Positions 488 to 36,969 of a DNA stretch of 64,000 nucleotides are shown piece by piece. Positions within the stretch are counted from its first letter, which is position 1. Each line of letters begins with the position of its first letter. The stretch comes from Balanoglossus misakiensis. Lineage: Eukaryota > Animalia > Hemichordata. Location: positions 1,532,831 through 1,596,830 of the forward strand of contig CM082578.2 of assembly GCA_040954595.2 (NCBI GenBank), written 5' to 3'. The notes below the pieces were generated by a model. That model did not search any database, was not told the DNA's origin, and was given only the letters and a program-made list of their open reading frames with translations. The translations under genes and the position numbers were made by a program.

Positions 488-671
488 GTATACAACGGTA
501 CTGAGAGTGATGATGATGTCATTATTGGTCCATGGAGTGGCAATTCTGATGAAGTCATTGATGGCACATTGCCACCACCCGATTGCCGTACAGACATTGG
601 ACACTTTTCGGTTGTGTTCAGGAGTAGTAGAACACGACCAGCTAAAGGATTCAGGGCGTCATTTTCACCAG
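488..671 (+). CDS. Exon: C-terminal half of a CUB domain
   Basis: VYNG...IGPWSG...FSVVFRSSRTRPAKGFRASF; ctgaag| acceptor and |gtatac donor. Confidence 0.75.
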
Positions 672-3600
672 GTATACATAACTTACTAACATTTCAGAAA
701 AGGATGTTACAGAATTCTTAGAAACACGCACTCCCTTTATTCCTTATGATTTAGAGTCATTAAGTGAAAGGTGGAAAGATTTTTGAATATGCTTCGTTCA
801 TTCTAAGAATGATCTAATTTCAGGGACTTGTGGATGAATTGTAATGTTTATAATCTTTACGGCCCTGATACGGGTTTTGTGGCCCGAGGTCGTACGGCGG
901 AAGCGCCCGACCGCAGGGAGGGCGGGAATCGACGTACGACCGATGGCCGCAAAACCCGTATCAGGGCCGTAAAGGTTTTATCATATGCCTTATTGAACGA
1001 TAATCTACAAGAAACTAATAAAATACACATTCTGTAATATTTTGGAATGTAAATATTATGTGTTTATTATGTAAATATTATCTATCGTTTTGGAATGATC
1101 TATCCCGTAGCATAGAGGCGCATTCCTCCAGTTCTTGCGGATTGATATGCACGATGTCATTTGTTTATATTCTATTGCACGTGAGATATAGACGCGCTCG
1201 AACTCACAGAGCCGAGCGCGAGCAAAACATTATTTTTTCTTTGCGACGATCGACGCCGACAGTCACACATTAATCAAATCAAATCATCAATTTGACTATT
1301 CATATTTCCAAATAATGCTCTACAACATGCAGCGATTACGGGAGATGATGGGATTCGGTAGCGGCATAGGACATACACACACTGCAAGTGCACTAGTCAC
1401 TGACACCGCACCAGAAAAATTTAATTCCGAACGTAGCAATGACAACTTTCGAATCTCGCGCAATAAACACAAAACTAGATCCGGATATTGAACGCGTCTT
1501 CCAAATATGGTCACCGGGCCGGGGCGTGATAAGCAAAAAAACTGCAGGGATGTGAGGGCGCTTTTCCCCATAGACTTTACGTGGGCACGTGAATATATAT
1601 TTTAATGTGTGTGTTCTTGTTTTTTACTTCTCTTGCTGTGTTTTTATGGGCTACGAGCCTGAAATAAAGATTATTATTATTATAGGCATATGATAATAAA
1701 CATACAAATGCGGCACGACGACCCCTCACATTTATGAGTCAAAGTATTTGTCTGCATGCATTCTTATCATTGTGATCCTTGTTCTGACAGACTGTCCCGA
1801 AATTGTGATTGGTGAGGGCGTGGTGACCAGTACAGATGATAGAAGCTATGATGTCACTGTCTCATTCCAATGCTTGGATGGTTATCAGAAAGTGTCTGGT
1901 ACTGTCTCTTCTCTCTGGAAACTGGAATGAAGAGGATCCTCTCAAGTTACCAGCATGTCAAAGTAAGGCAATAGTGCACTATTCTTCGATATCAAATAAC
2001 GTCAGACGCAGTTCCGTTGGCATTCAAATTTCCAGATGACGGGCAACATCAACAACTTGGTGCAGACAAAGACAGTGCAGATGAAACGCCATGAGGCTGA
2101 TGAGGCACCATACCTGATACATGTTACGTGTCTGGTAGTTCTAAAGTAAAAACATACTCGGAAAAACTTTTACTGGATGCCGAAATATTGTTTGCCCGTC
2201 ATCTGGAAATGACAACACCGTGGGTCACATGGCCAGATCACGTGATTGATAGTAAAGAATTGGTAGGACCGAATCCAGTAGAAGGGGTCCAGCTAATTTC
2301 TACATAATTTGGTAGCTTTGAGGTCACTCTTTCAGAAGAAAAAAAAACATTATTAGAAACCCATTGCCTGTTGATTTCCAGTGCGTAAACAAGCCTACAT
2401 TTCCTGTTCCACAGTTCAGTCAAGTTTAGGAGAAAACTAAAGTCGTCTCAATGTGAACTGTAACTCATGTAGGAATTAATGACTTCTCGTACAGGTGTCA
2501 TGTTGTTTGTAGCTATAAAATTTCTGTGATGGGAATTAATGTGAAGATATGATTCAATCTAACTTATATTTTATGAACATTTAAAGGGACAAAGTCTCAC
2601 TCACTGCCCTTTTCCATGAATTATGTTTGATACAAGACACCGTTTATGTTATTCTACATGTGGGTATACATGTATAGTGAATCAACGTTCGACCACACAC
2701 AACTTCCATACTGTTGAGTAATGAGAGTAAAAATCTCGCCAAAATGAGTAAATGGTAGAGACCGATTATTCATTTTGGCGAGTTTTTCACTCTTGTGTCT
2801 ATAAATGGGATGGAATTTGTGTGTGGTTGAATGTTGTTTCACTATACCATGGTGTCTTGTATCAAAGATAATTAATGAAAAAGGGGCAGCGAGATAGACT
2901 TAATTTGTCCCTTGAATCTATTGTTAGTAACAACTTGAATGACACTAATTTGTTGTTTATTTTTTAGGAATAACATGTGGTGGACCCCCTGAGTGCAGCA
3001 ATGGAATTCTTACCAATGTTACCAGTACAGTGTATGGTGGAATTGCTTATTATCAATGCATTGAGGGCCATCAGTTTATAAATAATGTGACTTCATTGGA
3101 ATGCCAAGCAGATGGTGTCTGGGGTCCGCTTGTGCCCCAATGCGAGCGTAAGTTGATATTTTTGAAAACAATTAAACTGTCATTGTAGTGCACACGTAGG
3201 AGATGGATTTTACAGGGTATATTGGCCTACTGTTTGGAGTAGAACAAAACATTGCATTTGGTACAGAGAACAAAAAATACTCTAAAACAGGTTATTTTCG
3301 CAACAGGAAATTTTCGCAATATCGAAAGAGGCAACTGTTATGCGAGGATTAATTTTCGCGTTTTCATATATCACTAACTGCATTGTTATCTCTGAAAAAC
3401 ATTTTACGCGACTTTTTATTTTCATGTTCTTTGGCTCTCGCGTATTTCGCTGAAATGTTTTGCTCGCGAAAATAGCCCATTTTGCAGTACTTAAAATAAA
3501 GCCAATTACAAGTTACTGTAGCTACATGTAATGTCCCTTTAAACTTTTTTCCTAGTAGTAACACGCTTGTGATGTTATCTGTTCATCTTACCCAAACAGC

Positions 3601-6600
3601 TCGTGAGTGTCCACCACCGAATGTAGACAACTACTTATCTTATGAAATTGTTAATGGTGATTCATTGGTTTTTGGAACAACCATTGCCTACTCATGTCCA
3701 TCTGGCTACAGTCTGACTGGCTACACTGTCTCTACATGTGGTGAAGATGGATCTTGGATTGGAGATCCAGGATACTGTCAACGTAAGTCATTTAAGGACA
3801 TGTACGTTCACTAAAATTGAAAGTATGGTCATTTCTTTTAATTGTTGATTTTTGGATTCGCCTTTGTATGTATAATGAAAATCAGTAATGAAATATACGG
3901 GTCACCGTGCTTGTTTTTGAAATACAGAGCCATGAATTCAGTCGATAATAGAAGAAAAGGAGTCTATGGTATCTGGACTTTTATAGTGGGAACTTGGGGT
4001 GAAAAGGTTAAAGTTGTTTCACAATACAGGTACCTGATACATACCGGTATACCACAACCAAGTCTGAATCCACATAATCCATTAAGATGTTTTATTTTTT
4101 TTTACTTGCAGGATTAAACTGCAGTGACATACTCATAACAGACCAACATTTACAAGCTGTCCCAGATAGTGGACCATATTATATGGGCAGCAACATCACA
4201 TTCTATTGCGATGCTGGCTATGAATTAAATGGTGCTGATTATCTGACATGTCAATCAGATTTACAGTGGAATGATGCAATACCATCATGCATTGGTAAGT
4301 TCACATCATGATTGGTCTTCATGTGGTTGTCTGCTTATTAGGCCAAAAAAAAAGGAAATGTTTCTGGTCAGACCCTTCTTTAAAAACTGGTGGGGGGACG
4401 CAAATTTAAAAAATAAAAATTTCTCTCAAGGGAAGAAGGACGGTCAGTTTTATAGTTTTTATCAATATAGTCACATGTACACTGTTCATGCAGTCATTGA
4501 TTACACGCCCCAAAATGTCCAGTGATTTATATCTAGTTGAAGCAGTTTGAGTTTGCCGTGGCCGCCACCACAAACCAGGAAAAAAATGGGGGTGACACGC
4601 TGTTATTCAAGTGACCCACGCGCTGACCAGAAACATTTCATTTTTTGGCCTGAGTTATTGTAATCACTCCAGTAATTCGACTGCTCCATTAGTTTGACCA
4701 CCCACTAATCTTTGGATAATTAATTATTCTACAACCTCCAATTGTTCGACCAGTACGTGACTGCATAATTCCCCCACCCCTCACCCCCACCCCCGGAGTT
4801 TTAATATCCTCATATAAGTGCCCTTTATCGCTACAGGAAATTTTTGCGACCGGAAATTTTCGCGATATAAAAAGCAGAAACTGTTACGAGACGATTAAGT
4901 TTCATGTTCTCGTATTTCACTGCATTGTCATCACTGAAAAACATTTTTAAGCGAATTTTTATTTTCACTACGTCTTTTTTGGCTCTCTAGCGTAAAAATT
5001 TACTGTTTGCGAAAATTTCCCGTTGGTCTAATACCCAGCTAAACTTGTTGGTCCGAATTTTCCCCTTGGACCTCTGGGATTTTGATCATATCTTGATGAA
5101 TAACATTTCAGATATCAATGAATGTAGTACATTGGTGGCACCATGTGGAATCAATCAAGTCTGTGAAAATAGAGATGGTGACTATCAGTGTGCATGTCTG
5201 GTGGGATTTGAACCGGATGTGAATGGAACAGCATGCAAAGGTGAGACATAACCAGTCACATACAACGTAACTTCAAGTCACTATTCACATTTAACACATT
5301 CCAAACTATCTGGATAAATTTTCAGAATTTCCTTGTAATTTTAAATTTTCTTCAACAGACATATTAACCCTGTGCCGTCTACAGCGCCCTCAGATGTCCC
5401 ATACGGGAGAAACCACAGCGTCTGTACACGTCCGATGATTCCAGAACATCGGGCGATTCAAAAAGTGTGGGATACGTAACGGTTTCTTGTGAAATACGTG
5501 TTATCTTTTTCTAATGACGTATTAAACATATGATAGGCTCTCATTTCCCGCCAAGAAAATATCATGTGATCATTTGACCTTTTGCCGTTATCAGCGATTT
5601 AATCTCAAGGGACGCTACAGGATGCTGCCGATTATTTTTAGTTAATTTATTCACGACATTTGTTGACAGAACTGACTTGACCTACCTCGAATTTTGTGAG
5701 AAAAATTGTGGCATATGCCGAAATAATTTGATTTTTCTTAAGGATGACGATTGGGAAGAATTTTTAGGACTAAAAAATGTTGAAACTGCTAGCGGTTTTG
5801 ATGAACATGAACGGGAATGGGAAGTTTTGAATTTTGAGGCTGCGGCCGTTGAACTTTCACCGGAAGCACCGGGCGACTTGCGCAACGTTCGTTGGTAATA
5901 TCGGAGATTTAATTTTATTAAATTATCACTGTTTTTTCGGAATCTGGTCCTAACCATTGTTTGGAAATAGGTACCCATTTTTTGGCAGTTGATTGCCCAG
6001 AATTTTATGAAGCATCTTGCCAACGAGATCGTGCTACACAATGTCAACAAGTCCACGCTGCTGACTCGAATCTAAAATCAAGGCTGATGAAATATACGGG
6101 AGTTTTAATATTGACGTGAATATTTTTATACGTGTTCGCTGTTTTCCACACGTCAAATTAGTTCACTGGTGACAGATTTCAAGTACCAGGCATCGCTAAG
6201 ATCATGCTAATGAGCAGATACAAAAAACTTTGCGAGTATTTTCCATGTAAACAACAATGACCTTGTTTCGACCTGAGGTGACCTGATCGTGATCGCGTGT
6301 TCAAAATCCGGCCCCTGTTAGAGATCGTTCATTTATCATTTCTAGCCAAGTTTTATGCATTTTAGGAGCTGTCCATTGATCAGGCTACGGTGTAATTCAA
6401 AGAAAACGGCCATATGATATAAATGCCTGTAAAACCAGTCGAGTGGGAGTTCAATGCGTATGCATTGCAATGAACATAGTTGCATGTTATCATACCGGCT
6501 ACTGCTTGAGCGCGAGCAGTTCAGCTGACTGGCAACTGACATAAATGTCATGTTACAACACAGAAGGGTAAAAGGGATAACAAAAACTATAATAAATAGT

Positions 6601-9600
6601 ATAAATAAGACAACCAGACTCTATATTTTGTTCATGTTGATTCCAAGACAAACTGTAGTTGCTGAACAAAAAAAATAAAATTTTCTCTAAACCGTGTTCC
6701 AGAATATTCAGTAAGGTAAAATGTAGTGGAATTTTTATATTTTCATAATCATTTTAGCATCATTTGAGAGCCCATTTTTTTAGCTTTCATATGGAAATAT
6801 GTTGCTATAGTCAATTTTTAGCTCAATTTTGGTTATATTGAAGAAAAGAAATCACTGTCAGTCATTGAATAATATTTTCTAATTTGAGTGGAAAGTTCTG
6901 GTCTCCACTGTGCATTGTTATGCAAATGAGCTGGGCTGCATAGGGTTAAAGTGTTGCCATCACCTTGACACAACTTTATCATAATTTATCTTTTAAGTTC
7001 ATTCACAACCTAAAAACAGTCATTTCCTGGAAATGTTCATCTGTTTTCTCTAAAATATCAGCTGAACTGTTTTGTAGAAGGAAATGTTCAACTAATTATT
7101 TCACAGATTTTTTTTCTCCCAAAAATTGCTGAATTTTTCACTGATTTCCCCCCCCCCCCCTAAATTCAGCTGAATTTTACACTGATCAGACACTTTTGGA
7201 AAGGTGTGGCACAAATTACTGAACGTACATCCTTAATGCAATTTTTTAATCCAACCCATGTTCCTTCTTTACTACTTTGTAGATATAAATGAATGTGCTT
7301 CACATTCTTTTGATCAACTTTGTGAAAACACTGCAGGTGGTTTTCAATGTTCCTGTGAAGAAGGCTATCTCTTATATGCAAATAACGGCACAGGTGGATT
7401 CTATCTACCACCTGGAGAAACTGGTCTCTCAATGTATGATGTCTACACTTTTAACCAATCATGTGTTCGTAAGTATCATGTTAAACTATAGAGTTAAAGG
7501 TATATGATCACCCATGGAAAATTAGCTATAATAGTAACCATGGAAAATTGAAATCTAGCCAATCACAGACTTTCAGTGGGAGGTACACGTGAAAAAAGAG
7601 TGCCACGATATGTTCTTTAGAAGGCTCTAATATGCCATTTCAGCCATATATGGGCATATATAAATTGGAGGTGACTGTATACCTTTAACCAATATTTGTC
7701 ATATTATTGACCTTTATACCGCAATGAATTTGCAGCGACAAAAATTGGACAAATGGCTGAATTTCATAATTGGATTTCATAATTTTGCCGTAATTCAGTT
7801 ATGAAATGTGGAGAAACTCAGCAGACCAACTTTGCACCGTCATTATTCATTTTGGATTTGTTTCTCTCCTGCTAACAAAAGTGTGTTCTCACCTTATGGC
7901 ATGAACATGCATTGAATTCTGAGGAAAAGGGGATTAATACTTGAGTGTATTTACAAAGACAAACAAGCTCACTGGTAGCATTTAAAGGGGAAGTCCGGTT
8001 CAGCTACATAGTTGGGTAGCTTTGAGGTTATTCTTTCAGAAAAAAACATTGTGTAGAAATTATGCATAAATCAGCTGGACTGGACTTCCCTTTTAATATT
8101 TCCAAGCAAGGCAATTGGTTTACTGCAACAATTATTACTTTGAAAACACAGTGTAAAACAACAATCATGATATGAATGTTACTTTAATAGATAGTCATAC
8201 TTATATAAGCATGACTGTCTATGTTGGTCTGTAAGTTGTATTTGAAAGAAAAGTTTCATGTACGAATAGTACGAAGATTGACATTTAGTGTTCTATGTAA
8301 TGGCTATAGTTTGTCATTCTATAAAAACATATATTAATTTGTGTGTACTTCACCAATATTCTCTTCTTATTCCTAATCTTGTACAGCCGTGACGTGTATT
8401 GTACCCAACATTTCCAACCCAATCCCTATTCCAAATCCATGTGAAGGATCCCTAGTCTGGAACATAGAGGAAACTGGTGATATTCTGGTGGAGTTCAATA
8501 GCACCATTACATTCTATTGTTTGGAGGGTTTTCAACTGAATGGACAGTCCACTCTGTTGTGTACAGTGGAAGGCCAGTATGATGCGGACTTTCCAACTTG
8601 CACACGTAAGTCAATATTTTTTTTTTTAATCAGAAAACCTTGATATTATTATACATCTGGCATCGAGAACAATAGAATTTGGCGTATGGAAGTTGTGTGT
8701 GGTTGAACGTTGATTCACTACATATCCACATGTAGAATAACACAAACGGTGTCTTGTATTAAATATAATTAATGGAAAAAGGGCAGCGAGAGAGAGACTT
8801 TGTCCCTTAAAAAGTGATTACAGATTTATCCCAGGCTCTTCCTTCAACTCAACTCTACGTGTATTTTCTACAGCTGCTGTCTGCAGTGAACCAGAGAGTA
8901 TTGATCATGGCAGCTACGAGGTCAATGACCCCAACTACAACTATCAGAGTGAAGTGACCTATAGTTGTGACATTGGATACAACTTATATGGTAGCCATGT
9001 CAGAGTGTGTACCTACAGCAGTCAAGATGGTGATTACCGATGGAATTCCTCTCCTCCTGTCTGTCAACGTAAGTAACAGGAATGAATAATGCTATACCTT
9101 ATATTCCTTAGAATTCTTTTGCATTCTATAGATTGCAATACGCATTAAAGTTATGTAGCACTCTTTGATCAACAGTTGAAACTACAGCATGAGCTTTCGG
9201 GAACATGTAGTCCCCTTCTTCAGATGCACTCGTGGAAGATTCCAAGCTCGTGCTGTAATTTCAACTGTTGATCAAAGAGTGCTACATAACTTTAATGCAT
9301 ATTGTACCGAAGATCACCACGGCAAAACTCTGAATTGTCATTCTATAGATTCTATCATTTCTATAGAATTCAATAGAAACAGGCTTCAATACTTCAAAGA
9401 AAATATGTGCGCTATATAAGAACTCACTATTATTATTTCTAGGTGTTGACTGTGGTTTGTTGACTGCGATTGAAGATGGCTCATGGGAATATAGTGATGG
9501 CACTTGGTATGATAGTGTTGCTACACTCCAGTGTAACATGGCATATGAAGCACTTGGTAACACCAGGAGATATTGCACTGAAGATGGAACATGGAATGGC

Positions 9601-12600
9601 ACCAGACCAAGATGTGTTGCTCAGGGTAACGTAGAAAAGAATATTTCTTTCAGAGAAGCAATCACTTCTGTTTGATAATAGTTATACTCTGATGAAATTC
9701 ATGACATTCACACACAATGTGTTGTTTGAATACAGTGTAAAATGGGGAATTTTTGGGCCAGAAATTTTCGCAATATCAAAAAAGGCGACTGTTACACTGC
9801 GACTACTACTTTTTCACTTTCTTGTATTTCACTGCATCGTTATTTCCGAAAAACATTTTAAGCAACTTCGAAAAGTACATACAAATATATAGATGTCCAT
9901 AGAAATTATTTAAACTTATATAGAAATTCAAAAGGCTAATGAATTCTGTAGAATGATGTATATAGAATGTTTTTGTAAGGAATGACTTCTGTCTGAGTTG
10001 ATGATTTAATATTGATAAGATACTTTGCTTCTTGACCTCAGGAGAATGTCAAGATCCTGGTACACCAGTCAACGGTCAGAGACATGGCAATGATTTCGAC
10101 ATTGGTTCTATAGTGTCATTCAGTTGTGACTATGGATTCACACCAAGCCATCAAAACCCTTTGATGTGTGAAGGAGATGTTGTGACTGTGTTGCCAACAA
10201 CACCTTCTACTACAACTACTGGTGTGTATATACTGTTGTTATAAACATCGTGGTGTGCTGAAACAGTACCGTGATAACTTCTATGTTCATGTAGTGTGAT
10301 ATATGGAGAAATGGTTCAGAATGCCCGCTTCCAAAACAACAGAGAGGCTTTAAAAGCTATTTGAATGTTGAAGTGAAACTTGATAAACAGAATTCAATCA
10401 GCATAACCTCTATTGCCTCCATTGTCATAGAAACAGAAACGGTCACAGACATGTCAACTGCAGAGCTTGGGACGACAGAAATGGATGGAACTGATAGAGC
10501 GGCAACAGAAGAGGAAGAAGTGACCACATTGTGGATGAAAATCTCCACAGCAGCTGCAGACACAGATGTTATGAGAACCACCAAGAGAGCACAGACAGAT
10601 GGCATGGTAACCACAACGGCAAAAGTACACACAGATGATGTGGCAACCACGGCGACAAAAGTACACACAGATGATTTGGTAACCACGACGGCAAGAGTAC
10701 ACACTGATGCTCAAACAAGAGATGCAACAGGTACGTCAAGTACAAACATCCACTGAATATCTGAAAACAATATGACAAGTTTACTTTACAGATGTCCTCT
10801 CAGTGGAAGTGAAAGTATCTCATTTCTTTTAATTGTGGATTTTTGGTTTCTCATTTGTTAGCATAATGAAAAGCTGTATAATACAGGGGTCACCATGCTT
10901 GAATTTAGTCATGGCCTTGTGTAGTTGAAAAACAAACAAACAGCTGAGTCAGCATTTCTTCACCCAAAAACATTTAACGATATTTATCTCTGAATAGACT
11001 GTGGTGACCATACAATTTTATTTGACCAATGAATTTATTTTCATTTAACTGAGCTAAATTGTCATGAAAATGACAATAGTAGTGAGTTTATATCAATCTA
11101 ATCCCATGCGAAGAGACAAATGTGCACGAATTTGCGCAGTTTACAAGTTTACGTTCTGTGTGTACATCAGTAATAGGTTGTGTAGCAAAATGTAGCAATA
11201 ACATCCAAATTCCATTCCAGTCAAGTTATTTATCATATAGTTATATTAAATAATTGATATTAAATAATCATTAGTGAGATCTATGGAATCTCACATATTT
11301 TAATGCAGAATGACTTGATTTCCATATGCAGGTTATGAGGCGCCATCAACGCAGGCAATCACTGTGACTGAAAGAAAACCAACGACAGATTCAGATAAAG
11401 AATTTACAACATCTGAAACTACTAGTGCACCACTTTCAACTAAAATATCAACAACAAAACCAGTGACACCTTCTCATGATGTATCAACAGGTAATTATAC
11501 TGTGTATTCGTATAATTCGTATTCATATCAGTATTTGTCCTTTTTTGCCACAATTTAAGAAAGGAATATATTTTGTGGCAGAGAAATGGTAAATACTTAA
11601 TACCGTATACCAGTATATCTAATTTTTTACATTGGCAATATGGAGCAAGAAACATAGCATGCGCTAGTCAAGTCTTGCCCCATTGTCACATATATAGTAA
11701 TATACATTGCAATTACTGAACAATATTATGGCTTCTGCTGAATGTGTGTGTGTACCGATAAACTGTGCATATTGACTGGCAGTGAGGGCAACAGCATACA
11801 TTTGTTTCCCTAAGGGACTGTGAGTCAACCCAGAACAGTCTGTTTCTAGAGGCTGAAGGCCGATGGAAACAGATTGTTTTGGGGGTAATTTGCATTCCCG
11901 AGGGGACACAAACGTATGCTGTTATCCGAACATGGCTAGTCGATATGTGTTTCATTATCAGAAAGCAGCACAAATCAGGAAATTTCTCTGCTGTACATCA
12001 TCAATTGGTCTTCATTGTAGATGATATATCACCACTGTACAAGGTCCCATACCTGTAAATAAATGATAAAAGCTTACACACAAACACATTTCACCAGATT
12101 AGAAAATGTACCACACAAACCCATTTTAGGATATTAACTCTTCTTGCAGCAAAGAATATCTTGCTTGTGTTGTTGATTTTACAGTCAGTAGAGATTGTGG
12201 AACCTTTGAGACTTTTGTAAACACATCTTGTGAGAAGTACATTGAGACACCAACTGATGGTACCTGTTCATTTGGAACATTCTACACAAGTATGGTTGCT
12301 GGTATGGCCAATTTTCAAGATTCACATGTAAGTATAAAGTTAGTTCTTGAAAGTCAATGTACCGCTAAATGTTTTGCTCCAGTGTCAATACTGACCAGAT
12401 TGTCTCCAATTTCTCATTGTGATTTGTAACATTGTTATGAATTATTTTATTTTGTCTTGTTTTGTGTGTTGCACTGTATTTTTTTAAATTTCTCACCCAA
12501 GATTGATATAATCACTAAATGTACTTGAAAAAAACTGCATACTGTAGTATTTCCAGTGTTGTCTAAAGGAGTTTTTTGGTTTGTGTAATTGCAGGTTTGC

Positions 12601-15600
12601 GGGCAATGCCTGAATGTGATTGGTTCAAATGATGCATCTGTAGTTGTCCGGGTAACAGACATGTGCATGTACCTGTACTGCATGAGTGATGAAGATGGTC
12701 TGGTTCTAAGTCAGGATGCTTACAACATCTTGTCAGATGGTGAAAGTCCTTCATCTCTTCTTGTATCCTACTCAGTTGTTGCCTGTACTGAGGATGTCTC
12801 TATCAAGTTCAAGGTTTGTGAAACAACACAATTATTAACTAATTTATATACCCTTGTCTTTAATTGTCACATCTTGGCAAACTTGTTTGAAACCTCCCTA
12901 GCCATTTTTTTAAGTATTTGTAAGATTGAAGTTTAAATTGTCAAGAGTATTCATCTGTTTCTTTACTGGAAGTTTAGATCTCCTGGAAATCAAACCAGTC
13001 TCAACTGATTTGGACAAGGGAAGATCCAGTGGGGACTAGGTCATTGACAATGATTTGTTGCAAATACTGTAAAACGGGAAATTTTCACGCCAGGAAATTT
13101 TCGCAATATCAAAAGAGGCAACTGTTACGTGAGGATTAATTTTGGCGTTCTTGTATTTCACTAACTGCATCGTTAAATCTGAAAAACATTTCACACGACA
13201 TTTATTTTCACGTCTCTTTTAGATCTTGCGTATTTTGCGAAAATTTATGCTCGCGAAAATAACCCATTTTACAGTAAGTCTTGCTCTAAATTTCAAAGTA
13301 TTAGGACCAACCAGGGACTGTGTTGTTCATCTTTTTAGTGTACTGCATATTGATTGATTGATTTGTTTATTTAGTTTGCAGAGAGCATTTCTGCATCATT
13401 CAGCTTATTAATATTGGATCATCGTTACCCTGTCACCACTGTGGAAGTCCACACAACTGGTCCCTGGATTACTCTAGACAGACTCAGTGATAACTTATTT
13501 GAACCACCCATTGGTTCTGGTGATATACAAGCCCCTCTAAATGTCAAGGTCTATTCGGTGTCTGGTAAAATTAACTACAGGGTTACAGACTTTGAGTTTG
13601 ATGAGATTATTGACACCTCCAAGCAATTTCGACATTGTGAGGATGATGAGCTTGAAGTTACTACACTTCCAGACTTTGGAATAGTTACAACAATTGAGAG
13701 TACGCTTGAAGGTAAGATGGTTTCATTTTATACAATATGTAATTAGTTTACTGTATAACATAGGTCAATGTTGCTGATGATTTCAATGGAGTGTAGCTGA
13801 ATTTGTTACATTAGTTGTGATATCTGATATTGTGTTTTGCACACCAATATCTGGTACACTCTTATGCAAAATTTTCGCAAGAGGAAATGTTCATGATATC
13901 AAATGTGGCAACTGTTACGTGGCGATTAATTTTCACGTTCTGGTATTTCACTGCATCGTTATCTCTGAAAACCATAAGCGACTTTTTTTTTCACCAGTAA
14001 ATTTATCGTTCGTGAAAATTTCCTATTTTACTGTATTTTGAATAAGAAATCTCAACACCCTCATAAACAATTGCATTAAAGAAAGCAATAGAATAATAAC
14101 ACAATATCATTTGAATCACACACCGGGATGAGAATACCTTGAAATTGTCTCCTGCCAGGAACATTGATTCAATACTGTTCATGTTAGTGGAGAACAATAT
14201 AACATTAGATTTCCTTGTTCTAGATTATTCAAATTGTAATGTTCATTTTTATCAACAGATGAAACAACGCTGGAATATTTAACTAGTCCCTACACCGAAG
14301 GCACAGAAAAAAGCATCTCAACTGATGGATATGCCATAACTTTGCCCAGAATGACAACTGTGTTGGACACAGACAATATACCGGCTGTGACAACTGGAAA
14401 ATGCAAGTCAACCACAACAGTTACTATGGTTACAGTAACCATGCCTGTTGTCGTGACAACAGTAGAGGCAAGTTCTGAAAAGCCTGATCAGCAGTCAAGC
14501 ACAGAAGGTGAGGGTACATACAAGACAACATCTGCTCCGATCTCAAAAACAGAAATGATGTCAACAGCAGAATCTGTGGATATTACTCCTGCAGACCAGA
14601 CTTCAGAGTATGACGATGCAAGTGATGTGATGCCAACAGAGTCATGGACCACACCAGAGAAATTGTTGACAACAAACAAAATGGACGCCACCACACCAGA
14701 GACACTTTTGACAACAAATAAAATGGACGGCACCACAGAATATTGGCAAACGGTAGAAGGCACCACAGAATGGCATACACAAATGATAACTGATGAAACT
14801 GCCACTTCCCAAAGAAGAACAACAAGAAAACATACAACTGAGGCACCGACAGATCTGTTAACATCAAAAGGTGAATGTATACGAATTTCTACACTTTTCA
14901 GCATTATGAGCTCCAAAGTAAGGATGGATCTTGTTTACTTAGTTGACACGACTCTAGCTCCTGGATGACACCATTATTTTTAGGGGGTGAGGGGTGGAAG
15001 AAAGGAGAAAACATATTCACTCCTCACTTTTTTTTCAAAGAAATGTAGGTTTACTTCCTATTATGATAAAGTAAACTATGAATAATAAAACATTGAAAAT
15101 TTGGCTTTATTGATAGAAACTTCATGTACGGGTACAGTGAAAATTTCAATTGAAAAAAAAAATTCATAATACCTGCAATGTAAACAGTTAAACAGTTATA
15201 CATTGTTAGTTACCATCATCATCGTTGTTTGAATCAGACTCTATGTCACAAATGAGGCAATAACAATGCTCAGTGCAATTGATCTGTATACAGTTGGTCA
15301 AATAACTCTTCCACTCTTATCATATAGACACCCATGTCCAGTGTGTAATATAAAGTATTCATTCAATTTCATTTATACAGTATATCATGATGTCAGTACT
15401 AAACCAACTACGAAACCAGCAACAACTCTGAAAGCCACAACAGGTGGTCTTACGACCCTACCAACTCCAACTCAACTACCAGGTAAGAGATATTACCCTT
15501 AGTTTGGTTGATAACGTGTTGTATTTGAGTGATGTCTCAAAGTGTTAAAACAAAACATCCAGAAAACTTGTTTTTGGAAGTTAATTTAAATTGCTTGTCA

Positions 15601-18600
15601 CATGATAGTTGTGTAAACAATGGTCACACCAAAATGTTCTCCTATATTTACTTTCAGAAAATATATACTTTTAGGGGATTCTCGATAATTAACAGAACTT
15701 GATAATTAACAGAGAAATGTTTATTTCAAAAAGTTATTTTTTTTTTCTTGTATCTTTCATACACACCATGAAGTAATAATACAGTTAAATTTAAAATCAG
15801 AATAAACCACAAAGAGTTGAACCCATTTATGCTTTGAACAAATTGACCTGAAGAGAATAGGAGTTGTATGGGTCTGTATTTACAATTATTCGATAATTAC
15901 TTTGCAGACCGTGACGTTCCTGACTACTGTGCACAGCTTAGTGTGTCATATAATGGTAGTGGGCAGATTACAGACCAGCAATCCTGTGGCAACTACTATG
16001 GTACAGAAATAACAACACAACTTGTTAATGGTTTAACTCAACTCCTGTCTCAAGATCCATCAGGAGCATGTGTTCCTCTTGCTGGTCTGGTTACAATCAA
16101 TATTGCATTATCCACCACCAGTCTCACCTCGCTATCGGATAATTCGGTGGGTACTCTAACTGTCTCTTTCAGTCTTGCAGAAAATCTTGTAGACTCTTTC
16201 TGGAGTCTAGAATATTACACTCAACAAATTGTTCACTTCATAGCATTTTATCTCACATGCTCTTCAGATTGCATATCCAAAGAAAAAATGCATATTGGGA
16301 GAATATTTTCATGCAAATGTGACAACCATGCGATGTTTAATTTTGTCGATACAATCGATCGTAAACTGCTCAGCTGAAACAGTGAGCAGTCATCTTTCTT
16401 TTTTGTTTACGTGCGTTGGAGTGGGGATGTCTTGAAACCATCCGCATAACAGTACATACCTGTACACGGTGAGTTGGGGCGCCTTGAAACTTAAGGCGTA
16501 TTTAACACGCGTTCTGTACGTACCGTTCCGTATGGCTTTTTAGTACACGCTAAATTCTATTGTTCTTGGTGCCAGATGCATAATAATAAAGCATATTAAA
16601 CATAACATCTTTTAAAACAAATGCTTATGACTGTATTTTCATTACCTGCAGCTTTTAATGGATGTGGGGCTGAACTTACTGATTGAACCCATAGACCCAT
16701 TGAGCCCTGGATACGACAATGCAGAATTGTCGGGATGTGGTCTTCAACTAATCTTTTATCCGACCAACCATCCAAGTGTATTTCCAATTTTGGTTGCCAT
16801 TGACAGTTCAGACAATTGTCCAGAACTATCATCTTCTGCAAACCCAATTCAAGAAGATGATGCAACATTCTGTTGTCCTGAAGGATATGAGCTCTTCCAG
16901 AATGTCAGATGCAGTATGTATAAAATCATTATTTTTATTCACACTAAAGTGGCGCTTATATCTCTTCTTTTCTTTTAAGGATGTACGCGCAGAACATAAA
17001 CCGGAAAACTGCACGCACCCGTCTTTTTCCCTTAGGATTACATTGATAATTGCTAGAAAACAAACTTCTTCTATTGTCATTGTCACAAAATTTTCTACAT
17101 AGCTCAGTCCAGTAAATATAAATTCATTGGTCACTTAAAATATAAGGGTCACCTTGCTCTATTTTGAGATAAATTGCATTAAAAAAAAATTTGCCCATAG
17201 ACAAACCATTGGTGAAAAATGCTGAATCAGCAGTTTTCTGCTATTATCGACTAAATTCGTGACTCTGTAATGTGTATTTCATAAACAGGCACGGTCATCA
17301 GGTAAATGCATGCTATGAGCGGTGTGTTACAAGCATGAATTAAGTATTACTAACAGAAAAAAAATTCTTCTTATTTCAACAGCAGCCGCAGTGGAAGTTG
17401 TGAGGAAAATAAGGGATGCATCTGAACAGTCATCATTTCTCACTAATGCTAAATGGAATGGCACTGCACCTGTTTGTATTGGTATGTTCATTAGGTCAAA
17501 ATAAAAAAATATGTGCTGTTCCAATTACCCGACCTACCCTAATTATAACCCGCTGACCCTAAACATTTTAGAGCTTCCTAAACCGGAAGTATAAAAAACA
17601 ATGTCAAATATACAAAATTTATGAAAATTGCAAGAATCACGTAAGAATTATGACGTTATTCTTATACACTACGGCGGCCAGAGTAATAAAAAAAATGCAA
17701 CATAAAAAAACATTCCCTACCTACCTACCCTATTTTTGAAAACCATGTAATCAGAACAGCACAATTTAGCAATTTATCCGCCAGATTGAGTTCTTGAATG
17801 AAATCACCAATGTTGGAATTGGATTTTAATGTTTGTTTGTGTTTCATTTTAATTTGATTCTGATTGTGTTTCATTCTGATTTGATTTGATTTGATTTCAT
17901 GCATTGTCTGCCTGCTTTCATTTGTGGAAATCACAAAGCTTATAAATGGTCCATCATTGGAGTGGTTGTCAACATCACTGGGAAAAAGGACGATGTTCAA
18001 CTGGTTTAGCAATTGGGGTTGTCATGGAGCCACCTACAGAACAGTTCTTCTCCCAGCTGAATTCAAGATTACTATGTCGCTTTAATGGCTGGCAAGTATT
18101 GTGGTTACAAACTTGGCAGATTACAGTCTCATATCTTATGAAATATTTTTTGGCTTGCAGATACCATGCCACCAACTTTAGACTGTCCAGACACGTACGT
18201 AATTCTTGTTGATGAAGTGGAACACAATGTGTCATATCCAGCAGTCTCTGTTGTAGACAACCACGGAATCAGTGACGTCATATATGAACCACCAAATGGA
18301 ACTGCAGTTGAAACCAGGAACTACATCACAGTGACTGTTACTCAACCGATTACAGTGGCAACCAGGCTCAGTGTCAATTTGATGTTTCTGTTCAGCTAAA
18401 CTAGCCCACTAGTCGCTTGGTGAATTTTGAATCTCAATACTTTTGTGTGTTTGTGGTGATTTTTTGTCTTTATAATACTTTTTGTGTGCATGCTGCTTTG
18501 AGCGTTTTTCTGGTACTGAGTTGAGTTTCGAAAATAATGCAAAAAGTGGTGGCAGAGACTTTAAACATTTAGAAGTTAATATGGCATTGTTTTGAGACAT

Positions 18601-21600
18601 TAGACATTTCACCTTTTAACATCTCATTTTGTTATTCAGCTGATACATGTCCAGAGTGGTCACTACCTACACCAGAAGGTGGACAGAAGACTTGCACCCG
18701 TGTCATTGGAGGACCACTGGGTTCAGGATTCTCATGTGCATTGTCCTGTCAAGCTGGTTATGATTTCATTCAAGAAATTGATTCACCTGGAGGAATGTAC
18801 ACCTGCATAATTGGTGGAACATGGCTACCCCATAATTACGTACCTGATTGTGTTGGTGTGTATGGGCTTCTACTGATCTATTTTTGCGTAATTGAAATTC
18901 AACTGATATCATATCAATATTCATTAGGCCCCCAAAATAATATGTGAATGCTGATGCAGATAATAAACTTGAAGAACCAAAATAACCAACTAATTCAGTG
19001 TTACTGTTGGTTCAAATTTTCTCTGTATATAAACTGATCATTTTATAATCAGTCAATACCTACATTTTTATAATCAGTCAATACCTACATTTTTATAATC
19101 CGTCAATACCTACATTACCGCATGGAAGATGGCACTAGTCCAGATTTGAGTGGATTAGCAAAAATGGGATTTTTTCACCAGCTTAGTAAAGCGAAGACTG
19201 GATTGACGATTGACAATTCAACTAGTTGGCCTGAAGTTAAATTCTCTTCCATATTGATCTTTCCACAGAGAAGGAAGTTCCAGATTATTGCCTGACTGTG
19301 GGAGGTGTATACAACTCTGTGATAACCATTCCAAGTGATACCAACCAATGTATCTCATATTACGAGTCGAGTCTGCTTGGAATTGTGCAGTCTGTTGAAC
19401 CACTGTTGTCGGTCCTGTGTAACTCGATTGAAGACAGTGTTGAAGTTCAAAGTGACTATTCAACAATGGCCATAGTAGACTCCAATCAGGTATTATTATC
19501 TGTCCTGCTGGAAAATTTTACAGTTTTACGCTGAAGAAGAAGGTTGATGTAATCCTTTATTTGATTTCTGTCGTTACATTATTGTACAATGTGTTACCCT
19601 AAGGTTGGGTTCTCCAAGGTGTGTCATTTTTAAGAAGCATTATCTTGTTATTGGAGGGACAAAGTCTCTCGCTCGCTGCCGTTTTCCCATTAATTATGTT
19701 TGGTACAAGACACAGTTTATGTTATTCTACATGTGGATATATAGTGAATCATCATTTGACCACACACAACTTCCATCTTGTTTGTAGGATATGAGGGTAA
19801 AAACTCGCCCAAAATGAATGAATGGTATTCATTTTTCGCGTGTTTTTTCACTGTCGCGTCTACAAGAGGATGGAAGTTGTGTGTGGTCAAACATTGATTC
19901 TCTATATATCCACATGTAGAATAACATAAACAGTGTCTTGTAATTGTATCAAACATAATCCCTTTAAATACTCCATAATAGCTTTATCTTTTTGCTACTT
20001 TTTCAGTGTGTTTGTTTTGTGTATCTACTGCAGTTTCTTGTATAGGGAATCATCATCTGCCCATGCCTGTATCGCTCACTCTTTTTGTTTCTACCGTACA
20101 TGTATTTAACACTGAATGTAATGATACTATTCACAACCACCATCACCATCATCATCATCATAATCATCATCACCACCACCACCACCACCACCACCATCAT
20201 CATCATCATCGTCATCATCATCACCATCATCATCATCAGTTTCTGCTGTTCCAAGAACTAGGCTTATCATGAGTGTAATTGATCATATCAGTTATTATGC
20301 CTATGGATACCATCTCATGACTCCTGTCCTATCTTGTAGTGTTTCTTGACAGTGATCTAGTCTATTCACATGTATCAGAAAACAAGCACTTAACAATATC
20401 TGGATTTCTCATGAATATGTGACAGATATTAACATCTAGAAGTGCATTTACCTAAATGTACCAGTGTATGCATAGGGGGTGTGGACCAGTTGTTTAATTT
20501 ACAAACATTTGTTATTCTTTCACTTTTTTTTCTTCAGATAAACACGCTCCTGAAGTCATTTACTGTCCCAATACGACCCGTATAATTAGTCCTAATAGCT
20601 TGACAACAGGAGTATGGCAGGAGCCTATATTTACAGATGATGTCGCCATTGCCAATGTGACACAAACCTACACAATGGGTAAGTTTCCTATAAAATATCA
20701 TTTCTGATTATAGATAATATATAACATTCACACTAACTAAGTTTTTTTTATCGGGGTGGGGTGGGGAGTTGATCTAAACAGAAACCAACAAGCTGAGACA
20801 ACTTTCCTAAGATTATGGTCAGTATGAAGCATACTGGTACAGTTTATTCTTGTGGCCGTTACTCATATATGGCTAGCACATCCTATGTGCGACAGATGAT
20901 CTTGCTTCCAAGTATTAAAGCCTCAATTGCTGATACTATTACCATATGTTTATAGGCCCTTTCCTCGATCCCAGGGCAGTACAATGAAGTTAAAACTCGA
21001 AAGCATTTGTGTTTGCACGTAATTGTTTATTGGAAACAAAAGATTTGACCAACTGTTGAGCAAGGCCTTTAATCAGTAAAGTACTTAATATTCTCAACTA
21101 CTACTGGGGATACCCATACCACAAATGTTGTGTTCTCTTACAATGGGCAGTTGAATAAACGTGTGCGGCACCATATCTGTTTAGTATACATATCTTGTTC
21201 ATGTTTATATGTACAGTCACAATCAGGAGTTGATAATATGCCTGTGTATACCCACCAGATAGCTCACTTAAATGGACCATTCTAAGTTTGAAAAGAAAAT
21301 CATGAAAAACATTCAAGAAACGGAAGCTATTTTGGCTTTAGCACCCATGCCTGTAATGATGTGCATAATTTTTTTCTTACAGGTGACACCTTTTCCTGGG
21401 GAACCTACCAGATCAGCTATGTTGCTTCAGATACAGCTGGCAACAATGCACAGTGCAACTTTTTACTCTATGTACTGCGTGAGTGAATTTTTTTATCATT
21501 CATACATAAACTTTACAAATTAATTAATATCTTGACAAATTGTCATCTCTACCCCTTGTTATGTCTTGTCACATACTGTAAAACAGGACATTTTCGTGAC

Positions 21601-24600
21601 AGAAAATATTTTGCAATATATCAAAAGAGGCAACTGTGACACGAGAATTAAATTTCCGCATTCTAGTATTTTACTAACTACTCTGGTATCTCTGAAAAAC
21701 ATTTTATGCGACTTTATTTTCTTCTTCTTTTTTGCCGAAGTTTGGGAAAATTTGCCGTTTTACAGTAATATGATTGCATCATTATCACTTATAACAACAT
21801 CATTCAGAACATACAAGGACACTCAAACCCGTCTAAAACAAACCCTGTCTAATCGGGAAACCTCTCTTCAACCAACAGCTTTTCCTAGTCCCTTTTACAT
21901 AGAAACATGTTAATGTGTTGGTGTTCTGTTTACAAGATTTGACTGTGTAATAAATATGGGTGTCACACATACACCATTAAGACAGTTCTGAAGCATCTCA
22001 GAATTGATACTGTCTTAAAAAAACATGTGTGGACGGTGTAAGTGGTCCTGAAACGTCTCAGATTTGAGATGGCTCTGCCAGCCAGACCTGAGCCGGTGTA
22101 AGGATTAACACCTCTCCGCAACCCATTGTCTATGGGGCCGAGCCTCAGCGCCCATACATAAACTTTGATTGGATGACATTTTGCATTCCTTAGTTGACAC
22201 ACACAAAATGTTATCCAATGACGTGAAGTGTATTACACGGCAGAGACTACAATGTGCCAGAAGACAGTTCCAGAGTCATTTATTCAATGTTTTTTAACGA
22301 ATTTGGCTAATTTGTGGCCGTGTGAAAAATATAATCTCACACACCAAAGACCTGGGATCATATTTCTCACGCTCATCAGGGATATTTTGTCCCACACTCG
22401 CCTGCGGCTTGAGTGGGACAATAAATCCCCAACTCATGTGTGAAATATGATCCCAGGTCCTTGGGGAATGGGAGATTCTAGTAACCCCACACTCTGGCAG
22501 ATTTGAAAGCATTATATGTGCAATACATGGACAGAAACTTCAATGTGCCAGCAATCTAATTAGTATCAGATGTAGAGTTAGGCGCTTTTGATAGGTTTGG
22601 CTATTCTGTTCTCTTAGCTTTGGCTGTTCTGTTCTCTGTCTTGGCTGTTCTGTTCTCTGTCTTGGCTGTTCTCGGGTGCACGCATCTCTTTCAAACAGAA
22701 CAGCCAAGAATCAGCGAAAGTAAAGAAGGCGCCTAATTCTACATCTGATTTTAATCAGATTGATGTGCCAAGTGACAGTTACACGAGAAGTAGAATCTCA
22801 AACACCGAGGAACCTGAAATAAGATTTCTGACACTCAAACTAAAATATTGCATCTCACACTCACCTTTGCCCATGAGAAGAAATCTAACACCATATCCTT
22901 TGGGATGTATTAGATTCGGTTAATCTCCTACATGGGACGCAAGACCTGTAATTCATTTTCCATAGCCAACAATGGGAGCTTTGAGCTAAATATTCCTATT
23001 TTATAACATTCAGCGAGCCAAATTCCATTGCATGGTTTTATCTTTGATGTTATATTCTGCCATTATATTTTCCAAGAAATAAAAATGAGGAACAGTGGGC
23101 TGTCAGCAGATTACCAATTGATGTTGGCAACGAAACTGGGGAACCCATCATTGAAGAGAGACAAATTCGAATCATGACAAATCCAGCAAAACCTTTTGAC
23201 TCAGGTGAAGTATTTGAGCCCCAGTAACTCTAACATTTGACTGTTTTTTCAGTATTTTTCTCCTGTGTCATTTTCTTCTTTTACTCTTTATAGCTTTTCA
23301 ACAAAGTCTGTATATAAGCAACGGCCATTGTTATTGTAGAAAATGAATTCGAGTCTCGACTTCATTCAATTTTCATCAATAACAATGCAGATTACTACAA
23401 AAGGGCTGTTTTGAAATAATATCCTAGTCCCTTTTACATAGAAACATGTTAATGTGTTGGTGTTCTGTTTAAAAGATTTGACTGTGTAATAAATATGGGT
23501 GTCACACATACACCATTAAGACAGTTCTGAAGCATCTCAGAATTGATACTGTCTTAAAAAAAACATGTGTGGACGGTGTAAGTGGTCCTGAAACGTCTCA
23601 GATTTGAGACGGCTCTGCCAGCCAGACCTGAGCCTGTGTAAGGATTAACACCTCTCCGCAACCCATTGTCTATGGGGCCGAGCCTCAGCGCCCATACATA
23701 AACTTTGTGTGTGTGGACACAACATGACTCAAAGGATTAATGCTCTGTGGTTAGCACTGGCAAATAGTGTCTCAAATTTTACCCTGTGTGAACCTGGTAA
23801 AAGAGGCATTGTGCCCTAGTGGCTAGGGTTGTGGGTTCGTTACCTAGACCTGGACATTTGGGTAGTATTTGCCTCTTGGATGATATATGAGACACAGACA
23901 TTTGGGTAGTATTTGCCTGTTGGATGATAGATGAAATAAAATTAAAAATATATAGACAAATAAACTGTGTTCTCCTTTCTTTTACAGCATTTGATTGTAA
24001 AAAGCCAGCACCACCAGTTAAAGGTATTTCCATCTGTAATGAGTTTGAGTCGGGTGTATTCTGTCACGTGGATTGTTTACCAGGATACAAGTAATACAAG
24101 AAAAAATGATTTGGTATCAGTAAAGAAATACTGTATACCGTTTTATTTTTGCGAGCGATTTATTTTTGCGACATTCGCGTGTACAACAAAACGCGAACTT
24201 TTTCCTTCGCAAACATATATACATTTCAGCTTACACACTGTACTTCTCACCTGACCTATACACACACACACGCACACAACAACAAGACGATACACCCGGT
24301 TCTTAATCAATACTATGTACATTTATTTTTAATTCAATGTTGGAAAAAATATAAAAGGAACAAAAATAAATAAAGAGAAAATGATCATCTCATAAAGTGT
24401 GCTCCACATGAAACACGTAGCCTACGATTGCACAACTTTCACAACCGGCCGGGGCCAGGAGGGTTAACCGTACGACTCGGGCGGAAAATGGCGTTCACTT
24501 GGCTGGTTCAAGAAAGCAAGTGGCAGACAAAATAACAGTATTACCAAAAGTAAAATCATCAAAACAGTACAAACGAAAAAAATATTATGATATATTTACA

Positions 24601-30526: not shown

Positions 30527-31924
30527 TACTTTTAATGTGCCATCTCTGTGTGTACATGTATGGTATAATTCAAATGATAACTAGAATGGTTTTCATTTTG
30601 TGAGTTGACACAGTACTGTGATAAGCTTGGTATAATCCCATAAATGATAACAATAATAGTTATGCTTTGTCAGACGACAGTACTGTGATAAGCGCACATT
30701 AAATTGGTTGGAGTGAAACAGATCTTTATTATTACACTCTTAGCAACATCTGAATGAAATGATCATAAATAATCATCTTTAAAGTATGTTGGTTATAAGG
30801 CTATATATTTTACATATTTTAAAGAATTTTCCTTAAAAATTTGTTATGACTTATTATAAGGTATAGTGTAATGAGAAAGATATGATAATACGAGAATTCC
30901 TAAACAACAACATATTTGTGTTGAATTTGGAGGACAAATTTAACAGTGTACCAATTCAGCTCTCCCTTTGCATGCTGACTTGCTTCTGTATTCATACAAG
31001 GCAGCATTTATCCTTAACTTGATCAGATAGAAGGTCTTTTCATCCAAATGCATAGATTATGAATTATTTCTCTCAATATATTCAGTGACTACCTCCCGAT
31101 GATATATATCCTCCTGAATTAGTGCTTCAAATTTTGATATTTTTCTTGATATTTTTCTTTAATTTGACTTCAACCGTCACCATTCTCCAAGACTGTAAAA
31201 GAAGGGAGATGATGATTAACTATTATCAATTTTTTTGCCCCTTGTACTGTCTTTTCAACTGGCCGTATAAATCTGATATTTGTTTGGCATGCGAATTTTG
31301 GAATATGGATGTGTATGATCACAATTATAAGATCCTCAAAATAAAAGATCCTATCATTTCATTTGGTTAATAACCAGTTCATAGGTGAATGAAAATATAG
31401 TTACTCACTTTGAGACCTGACATGTATATATAATAATTCAAAGTATTTATTCGCATATTTTTATATTATTCATGGTGTTATAGATCAATGGAAATTTTTC
31501 AAATTAAATTCATGTATATAAAATGTAGCAATGTAATGTCATATGTGAAACCCTTAATCTTGATATTGTAATTCATTGTAGAATATGATTATATTGTGTT
31601 ATTCACTCAACTTGTGCATGTATGTTTAAGATTCATGCAAAATTACTTTTTTATACAAACTGTTCCTTTTTGTGTTGTTCGGAGGTGACAACTCATCAAC
31701 AATGAAATAAGTTTGGGAAATTTTTGAACAAAGTCATGAAGTGGAAGTACTATAAATAAGTTTAATATCTTCTGTAGTTGTTATAATAAGACATCAAACC
31801 AGGTCCAATAATCAATATTACTCAAGCTAAGCTAATTACCAGGTCCAGGTTCAAAAAAGAAATAAGAGAAAAACTTACAATTTCAACAGGATCATCTTGA
31901 ACCACTGCTAAGTGGTAGTACTCG

Positions 31925-36094: not shown

Positions 36095-36360
36095 TGCATC
36101 ACGGGATACTTCTTTGTAGACTATCGAACCTTGGCATCTCAGACACAGTACTAACATGGTTTACATCTTACCTTCAATATAGATATCAAACTGTAATCAT
36201 CGAAAACACTGCAAGTTCACAGTCACCTCTCGTATACGGGGTGCCACTGCCCCTCTGTTGTTCACCATTTATATAGCCCCACTTTATAGTAAACCGATTC
36301 GTCCCCACATCGTACAATTTCATCAGTACGCCGATGATAACCAGCGATACCTCGCCTTTT
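36095..36360 (+). mobile_element. Old L2/CR1 reverse-transcriptase fragment (also at 45624-45890)
   Basis: HGILLCRLSNLGISDTVLTWFTSYL..RYQ..GVP ... HQYADDNQ. Confidence 0.8.
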
Positions 36361-36429
36361 CCCATCAAGATTCAACCTCTGACGTTCCTGTCTTCTAAGG
36401 ATTGTTGAACTTTAATTCATGCAGTTTGT

Positions 36430-36969
36430 TGTTACGGCCGGTCGTCCTCCGGACGTTTACCTCATCGGCTTCTGTGGGGAATCAGCCACGTCCGAAAGCT
36501 GACGGCGTACATTCTCTCCATCTCCTTCTCCACCCAACATATTCATAAAGTCCGAGAGAGGTACCCGGCAGATCGTAAACCTTTCGTAGACAGAGACTTG
36601 CAAGAAGTTTTCCGAGTAACACAAAGTTCTGGTTTATTACTGGTCACACGTAAGAATTGCACGACTCGATCCATGCTCGTTGACTCCCATCACGGATCTC
36701 CGGTGATAAACGTGTGATCTCAAATTTCACCACACCTTATTAATACGTTAGTCAAGTATTAAGTCATAAAAGGAACACGTCATCTTGATATTTCTTAAAC
36801 ATGAACTTAGCGCGTGATATCTCTATCTCGTTCTGACATGTATCAATTACGCAATCTTGTTTACTCTGGGTCAAGTACCAATGTCAATACTGGACTAAAA
36901 CCATATAAGTGAATGACTTCTTACGTAATCATAAACAAGATCTATGATCGTTAAAACTCAATCGTGACA
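36430..36969 (-). mobile_element. 3' LTR of an LTR retrotransposon remnant (duplicate at 45959-46497)
   Basis: TGTTAC...GTGACA ends; minus-strand polypurine tract ggaaaagtgggaag abuts 36969; minus-strand AATAAA near 36635; presumed internal sequence continues to ~37818 and 41149-41370. Confidence 0.68.

Follow-up and report, generated by a model that had tools for sequence, protein, structure and literature searches.

A predicted sushi domain split by an insert of about 830 residues in a Uif-family gene of Balanoglossus misakiensis

The locus and its split sushi domain

We analysed a window of 64,000 nucleotides from the hemichordate Balanoglossus misakiensis (contig CM082578.2 of assembly GCA_040954595.2, positions 1,532,831 to 1,596,830, forward strand). 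It carries a colinear gene of the Uninflatable (Uif) family. Scanning 36 exon translations against Pfam and searching by tblastn with four hemichordate proteins traced it from the end of a CUB domain at 488 to a transmembrane exon near 29824; the 5' end of this host gene lies upstream of the window. Its last sushi domain ahead of the HYR domain is divided over eleven exons (E1 to E11), and the two parts of the domain flank an insert of mucin-like, expansin-like, and SEA-like exons (Table 1).

The eleven exons (10042-17481, plus strand) all have AG/GT ends and compatible phases, and their joined frame is open with zero stops. E1 encodes the first three sushi cysteines (Cys1 at 10047, Cys2 at 10125, and Cys3 at 10167) followed by a Thr-rich tail, and aligns with the Pfam Sushi profile only over its positions 1-46 of 56 (E 5e-6). 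E11, ten exons past E1, encodes the sequence RKIR (17403-17414), the Trp (17454), and Cys4 (17475). In the predicted spliced product, 832 residues separate Cys3 from the closing Trp and 839 separate Cys3 from Cys4; the Cys3-Cys4 span is 12-17 residues in the six intact sushi exons of the host gene that we measured. The donor of E11 is a phase-1 GT one codon past Cys4, and most intact sushi exons of the host gene end likewise. The strict sushi closing motif in E11 is the sole copy on the plus strand between 10222 and 18160. In Markov simulations, using a motif defined after inspection of the sushi tails in the window, it arose by chance in 11 of 1000 runs, and together with a phase-1 GT in 2 of 1000.

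The split copy has, in the correct order, the four cysteines and the Trp ahead of Cys4 that mark sushi (CCP) domains. A first-pass annotation had proposed that one sushi, with Cys1-Cys3 in the exon at 10042 and its Trp and Cys4 in the exon at 17383, is split by an insert of about 830 amino acids, and the open eleven-exon chain and the rarity of the closing motif bear this out. That the two halves occupy one sushi position is upheld by homologues, which keep the same flanks before the HYR domain. The split sushi with its insert of about 830 residues is confirmed at the DNA level and supported by comparison; the protein is predicted.

Structural modeling of the split sushi added little. An alignment-free prediction of the two halves as a complex scored 0.25 against a mark of 0.34 and counts neither way. 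AlphaFold2 modeling of the Ptychodera homologue with a long insert (six alignment rows) gave a mean predicted local distance difference test (pLDDT) value of 45.8, with 42-54 for the sushi and a confident prediction for the HYR domain alone, which was also the only part of the model matched in a fold search.

Table 1. Features of the host gene and the split sushi
Feature	Coordinates	Strand	Evidence and remarks
Host gene in window	488..29930	+	CUB end, sushis, 2 EGF, sushis, split sushi, HYR, modules, RRKR module, 4 Eph-like repeats, 2 EGF, transmembrane exon
Family-signature EGF exon	7283..7468	+	Phe at 7310 where another individual's contig has the conserved Cys
E1: sushi N-part (Cys1-Cys3) and 17-residue Thr-rich tail	10042..10221	+	Pfam Sushi 1-46/56; 34-44% identity to pre-HYR sushi of 10 homologues
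E2: mucin-like, phase 1-1, 36-bp repeats	10431..10730	+	29% Thr; tandem repeat 10591-10709
E3: mucin-like, phase 1-1	11332..11490	+	Thr+Ser+Pro 52%
E4: presumed start of expansin-like domain 1, phase 1-0	12185..12327	+	Position; Cys/Gly motifs compared by eye with those of expansins
E5: double-psi beta-barrel (expansin domain 1), phase 0-0	12595..12813	+	NF041144 39-109/194, DPBB_1, Atlas DPBB/Barwin
E6: expansin domain 2 (CBM63-like) and short Thr-rich tail, phase 0-1	13375..13711	+	NF041144 119-193/194, EXLX1, Atlas Expansin_C
E7: long mucin-like exon with RTTR (minimal R-X-X-R)	14259..14870	+	Thr+Ser+Pro 40%; 42-bp repeat
E8: mucin-like, phase 1-1	15381..15482	+	Thr+Ser+Pro 52%
E9: Uif-family SEA-like module, first half, duplicate copy	15908..16146	+	33% identity over 48 aa to exon 19269-19489; alignment with 4 homologues
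E10: SEA-like module, second half	16652..16913	+	Module cysteines shared with 4 homologues
E11: RKIR, then sushi Trp and Cys4	17383..17481	+	Closing motif; top non-self tblastn matches in window are tails of other sushi exons
HYR exon after split sushi	18161..18396	+	Pfam HYR E 0.0026; frame switch near 18337; no GT at expected donor 18397
Sushi-like exon, family-typical	18640..18855	+	42-47% identity to hemichordate homologues
SEA-like module at canonical position, first half only	19269..19489	+	Second half and Eph/EGF/pentraxin middle block not found

The host gene and the pre-HYR sushi loop in Uif-family proteins

The window gene fits an ambulacrarian Uif homologue, judging from its sequence. 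It has the signature EGF, a core of sushi, HYR, sushi-like, and SEA-like domains, Eph-like repeats, an EGF, and a transmembrane segment; from the N-terminal part of Uif (C-type lectin, LDLa, three CUB), the window includes just the last part of one CUB-like exon. The signature EGF exon in a profile search and the best homologue in a word search led to hemichordate proteins and arthropod Uif proteins, with no echinoderm orthologue among those retrieved, and two entries (P0256 and P0289) carry the database name 'uif'. Generic EGF proteins crowd the list of the profile search, in which four among the 150 matches listed, chosen by coverage, match the whole exon; a word-index search with the same exon yielded one of four candidates, a generic EGF protein. 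Four further proteins (P0251, P0252, P0259, and P0267) lack the family core and were dropped. The closest sequences are hemichordate proteins with 27-57% identity per exon, from Saccoglossus (XP_077865312), Ptychodera (XP_070544274 and XP_070544275), and Glandiceps (XP_077999677). A tree built on six blocks concatenated across 11 sequences, rooted by choice on P0255, places the window gene as sister to the four hemichordate proteins (clade value 99), and the split between hemichordates with the window gene and arthropods with P0255 has a value of 100.

Uif is a Notch antagonist in Drosophila, and the part of its description drawn on here lists CCP, F5/8C, and HYR domains separately with nesting unmentioned (PMC3340373). 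As in that partial account and in the arthropod Uifs (P0256, P0258, P0261, and P0262), the Balanoglossus gene has CUB, sushi, an EGF pair with the signature insert, sushi, HYR, SEA-like module, Eph-like repeats, EGF, and transmembrane segment, and, like the arthropod proteins, it has the Cys3-Cys4 stretch of the pre-HYR sushi enlarged by an insert. Unlike it, the arthropod proteins have one F5/8C domain of about 170 residues as filler and two HYR domains after the split sushi instead of one. No F5/8C match was found among the 36 host-gene exons, and the domain is absent too from the hemichordate homologues P0125 and P0234. The middle block of the family, three Eph, an EGF array, and a pentraxin, had no tblastn match in 19490-20537, and the pentraxin had none anywhere in the window; a deletion or a fault of the assembly may account for this. 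A second SEA-like module (25565-25817) with a full RRKR furin-type site is common to the hemichordate homologues, and a probable cytoplasmic-tail exon (30175-30520) has an NPxY motif, with a similar Tyr/Asn-rich motif in these homologues.

Aligning the Uif-family proteins around this sushi, as had been suggested, gave a catalogue of nine homologues that reach Cys4; P0150 was omitted as its model ends before Cys4, and P0271, an isoform of P0125, was counted once. In all nine, the last two landmarks of the pre-HYR sushi are an aromatic residue and a Cys, with the first HYR domain following immediately, and the flanks are constant whatever the filler: the sushi N-part, then Trp-x6-Cys, then HYR. 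The Cys3-Cys4 span is 15 residues in P0255, 39 in Saccoglossus, 42 in Glandiceps, 45 in one Ptychodera protein (P0166), 961 in the other (P0234, XP_070544274), and 169-171 in four arthropod Uifs, where it holds an F5/8C domain (in P0262, F5/8C 1315-1439 sits between Cys3 at 1291 and Cys4 at 1461). The loop is thus expanded in eight of the nine homologues and in the window gene. The independent loop states number about four to five, not nine, because the four arthropods share one ancestral insert.

As a control, all 27 non-Uif pre-HYR sushis had ordinary spans, 21 of them at 60-67 residues and six at 121-122 (two sushis by length); the anchor motif that defines this set was found in 37 of 129 proteins. 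Across the same 129 proteins, 2972 of 2994 sushi starts reached their Trp. These comparisons support the loop, a site where sushi domains rarely expand, as a variable slot in the Uif family.

The first-pass annotation had placed an F5/8C domain just after Cys3 of the equivalent Drosophila sushi, and this domain is present there in four of four arthropod Uifs that reach Cys4 (Drosophila itself not among them). Its suggestion of a swappable carbohydrate-binding slot holds as to swapping and is too narrow as to carbohydrate binding: elsewhere the slot is filled by short basic loops or by a 961-residue predicted helical repeat, and the expansin-like module has lost the residues known for cellulose binding and loosening. 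The long Ptychodera filler (P0234 residues 383-1343) is repetitive, contains cysteines, has no Pfam match, is predicted to be helical at low confidence, and has two furin-type sites ahead of it. The hemichordate Uif-like proteins resemble the Balanoglossus gene in having an expanded loop at the same sushi. They fill it with short basic stretches or helical repeats that carry furin consensus sites, and none has mucin, expansin, or SEA content. Separately, in P0150 (residues 755-960; Pfam 815-936) and the arthropod Uifs, the first F5/8C domain seems by eye to be nested in an EGF, between its fifth and sixth cysteines; if read correctly, it would be a second nested insert in the same protein.

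Contents of the insert

The insert had been described as mucin, expansin, mucin, and SEA-like. The four mucin-like exons (E2, E3, E7, and E8) have a Thr/Ser/Pro content of 31-52%, the expansin assignment is supported, and the SEA-like one stands only as far as the ferredoxin-like fold of a homologue.

E5 and E6 match the NCBIfam profile NF041144 of the EXLX1 family (E 2.8e-7 and 5.6e-6, respectively) in colinear segments on consecutive exons, although each exon scores far below the curated whole-protein cut-off. Weaker signals agree: Pfam DPBB_1 (E 8e-4) and Atlas DPBB/Barwin (0.89) for E5, and B. subtilis EXLX1 (PDB sequence; E 0.0048) and Atlas Expansin_C (0.87) for E6. E4 by itself had no family match in profile scans. 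The module resembles microbial expansins of the EXLX1 family (NF041144; PDB 2bh0; the portion of PMC5072189 used here) in the order of its two colinear domains, a double-psi beta-barrel and then a CBM63-like domain, and differs in spanning three exons of an animal membrane protein. According to the same partial source, Asp82 of EXLX1 is required for loosening, and Trp125, Trp126, and Tyr157 form the aromatic platform for cellulose binding. The Asp82 position reads Val in E5 (by-eye match to EXLX1 81-91), Tyr157 reads Asp in E6 (alignment to EXLX1), and Trp125/Trp126 read Ala/Ser by ungapped extension, with a Phe one residue off. Because these residues are not kept, the module looks like an expansin fold that is not to be classed as an active expansin.

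E1, E4-E5, and, through overlapping contigs, E5-E6-E7 are also present in the DNA of another sample, so the linkage of expansin and mucin is supported as genomic. The contigs derive from two sequencing runs of one sample that behave as low-depth DNA and showed zero splice joints, and E10, E11, and the lesions of the HYR exon lie outside their coverage. Across E4-E5, one contig differs from the window in eight codons, six of them non-synonymously (listed differences only), which are too few, and of too uncertain an origin, for an inference of selection. A tblastn search of plasmids with E6 gave three rows, all chance. The extracts of an expansin survey that we used (bioRxiv 10.1101/637728) report expansins as annotated in few animals and call them unconfirmed and perhaps contaminants; a supplementary table of that survey lists animals with annotated expansins and may include ambulacrarians. 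In a sea anemone, a transcript annotated as Expansin-YoaJ is upregulated in the pedal disc, according to the section consulted (PMC6626399), so animal expansin-like genes are not unique to the Balanoglossus case. Our open-access literature search found no ambulacrarian expansin described. An expansin-like module over three spliceosomal exons in a clearly animal gene makes contamination hard to invoke and offers a testable case of an animal expansin.

E9-E10 align with the module downstream of the sushi-like domain in all four homologues aligned. Because of this alignment and the 33% identity of E9 to the exon at canonical position, E9-E10 are read as an old internal duplicate of the family's own SEA-like module, a duplication that the first-pass annotation had passed over along with the lesions outside the insert. 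An assembly duplicate is ruled out at so low an identity. The Glandiceps module was modeled with a pLDDT of 83 as a ferredoxin-like fold in the order beta-alpha-beta-beta-alpha-beta. This order resembles that of SEA domains (MUC16, TMPRSS), and the model aligned with four SEA-containing chains (Z 6.4-6.8, root mean square deviation 3.0-3.7, 93-114 residues aligned) at a level tied with unrelated folds; non-SEA ferredoxin-like folds tied or scored higher (best Z 7.7). Foldseek found no match to the model at E 0.001, the top row being thyroglobulin (E 7.7e-3). Unlike SEA domains, the module has several extra disulfide-type cysteines, and no autoproteolysis motif was noticed.

A probable looped side branch and its alternatives

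We consider it fairly probable that this Uif-family gene encodes a last pre-HYR sushi, split over eleven exons, in which the 830 residues between Cys3 and Cys4 form a looped side branch that leaves the sushi free to close around it. Standard disulfide pairing in sushi domains is 1-3 and 2-4. The Cys2-Cys4 bond would clamp the base of the loop, which would keep the rod continuous, as in the LE arrays around the L4/LF inserts of laminin. The loop would have grown by exon shuffling into an intron of a short ancestral loop (48 residues would remain with all cassettes skipped, against 39-45 in hemichordates), taking up phase 1-1 cassettes: mucin exons, the three-exon expansin-like block, and the two-exon copy of the host gene's SEA-like module. 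O-glycosylated spacers would then hold a non-loosening expansin-fold module off the rod at the apical cell surface, perhaps as a glycan-contact or spacer unit.

By analogy, the split sushi is a nested insertion of the laminin L4 type, a kind already known. In the part of the laminin literature used here (PMC5338690), L4 interrupts an LE domain between its third and fourth cysteines; these large inserts, up to about 580 residues in alpha3/alpha5, leave the rod unbroken and have folds like carbohydrate-binding modules. In contrast, the laminin host module is LE, not sushi, and its inserts are fixed and globular, not lineage-variable mucin loops of several cassettes. A nested sushi loop insert was not described in the open-access literature that we searched.

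Several points weigh against a looped side branch in this copy. The exon chain is a prediction from DNA and not from transcripts, the E1 donor (GTGTGT) is weak by eye, and the homologue inserts are database gene models. Known functional residues are lost in the expansin module, which makes a binding role a guess, and a word-index search with E6 found the same mucin-expansin-SEA filler in 0 of 406 candidates (197-2000 aa). The 839-residue loop has RTTR and RKIR only and no R-X-K/R-R. Further points lie outside the insert: a frame switch near 1910 (exon at 1791), the frame switch and missing donor of the HYR exon, the second SEA exon and middle block that tblastn did not find after 19489, the missing second half of the sushi-like exon ending at 24090, and the Phe at 7310, a position occupied by Cys in the other sample as well as in the homologues.

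The strongest alternative, which we rate as a serious possibility somewhat short of even, is that the architecture is real but that the copy in the window, as a null allele or a pseudogene in decay (or through errors of the assembly), yields no intact looped protein. Five lesions outside the insert and an EGF cysteine lost here and retained in another sample speak for it, as does a Pogo/Tigger-like element (24130-25197; terminal inverted repeats present, DDE_1 matched in part at E 0.0014) that adjoins the truncated exon. Yet the split sushi and insert are lesion-free over 2652 coding bases out of about 6775 modelled, which is suggestive and not significant, both exons with a frameshift, being of phase 1-1, might be skipped, and small indels are also typical assembly errors. 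In the gap at 19490-20537, about 850-1000 residues of family exons are absent, and a (CAT)n array that lies there (20141-20238) is a possible trace of a deletion or misjoin.

We regard it as unlikely that the cassettes are spliced alternatively and left out most of the time, with a 48-residue loop in the main protein and the long loop in a minor isoform. The symmetrical phases of E2, E3, E7, and E8 (1-1), and of the blocks E4-E6 and E9-E10, would allow this, and the skipped loop would come close to the hemichordate lengths; however, all nine internal exons have open frames and canonical splice sites, and the Ptychodera gene model includes its 961-residue filler at the same site. It is very improbable that two adjacent paralogues or a tandem-duplication remnant were read as one gene, with E1-E10 ending one and E11 beginning another: E9-E10 are a module whose usual place is after HYR and the sushi-like domain, as expected from tandem duplication with loss, and two Ptychodera paralogues have consecutive accessions on one contig, but the chain from 10221 to 17383 has no stop, start, or signal exon, HYR and sushi-like remnants were not found in the insert introns, E9 is too diverged from its twin for an assembly duplicate, and all other exons are colinear with single homologues. 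An old duplication may still have been the route by which E9-E10 entered the loop.

A looped side branch could also be opened by cleavage, as had been proposed for RKIR. The furin consensus is R-X-K/R-R, and RKIR fits only the minimal R-X-X-R. Two consensus sites each occur in three of the four hemichordate loops and none in Saccoglossus or the four arthropod loops. RKIR is one base from RKRR and stands 13 residues ahead of the Trp, against six in two homologues. Given the 2-4 pairing, the two halves would stay tied to each other through Cys2-Cys4 wherever the loop was cut. From the homologue sequences, it is likely that the loop is opened by furin in hemichordates and that its pieces are held by this bond; a cut at RKIR or RTTR in the Balanoglossus copy is possible and on balance doubtful, so that the proposal now leans on the homologues. 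In P0166 (residues 1194-1238), a short two-cysteine peptide of the loop lies between two furin-type sites and could be excised as a small disulfide peptide.

More broadly, and only tentatively, bilaterian Uif proteins may have an unrecognised plug-in slot in one sushi, held by a single-disulfide clamp, opened by furin in deuterostomes, and loaded with lineage-specific shuffled cargo, which here would include a genuine intron-split animal expansin repurposed for a non-cellulose cell-surface glycan; we think this full picture rather unlikely. The comparison itself changes how the Uif domain map reads: one F5/8C is nested in a sushi, and in deuterostomes the same loop is a preferred site of unrelated inserts, 25 to 950 residues long. 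Nesting of this sort escapes domain scanners. The case would be worth less if the Balanoglossus copy is dead.

Beyond the host gene, near-identical pairs of open reading frames about 10.4 kb apart in 31000-47700 point to a segmental duplication, and a broken long interspersed nuclear element lies at about 37900-40800 (RVT_1, E 3e-11). Satellite arrays with a unit of 82-86 bp occupy 47717-56085 (about 99 copies) and 60401-63987 (about 42 copies).

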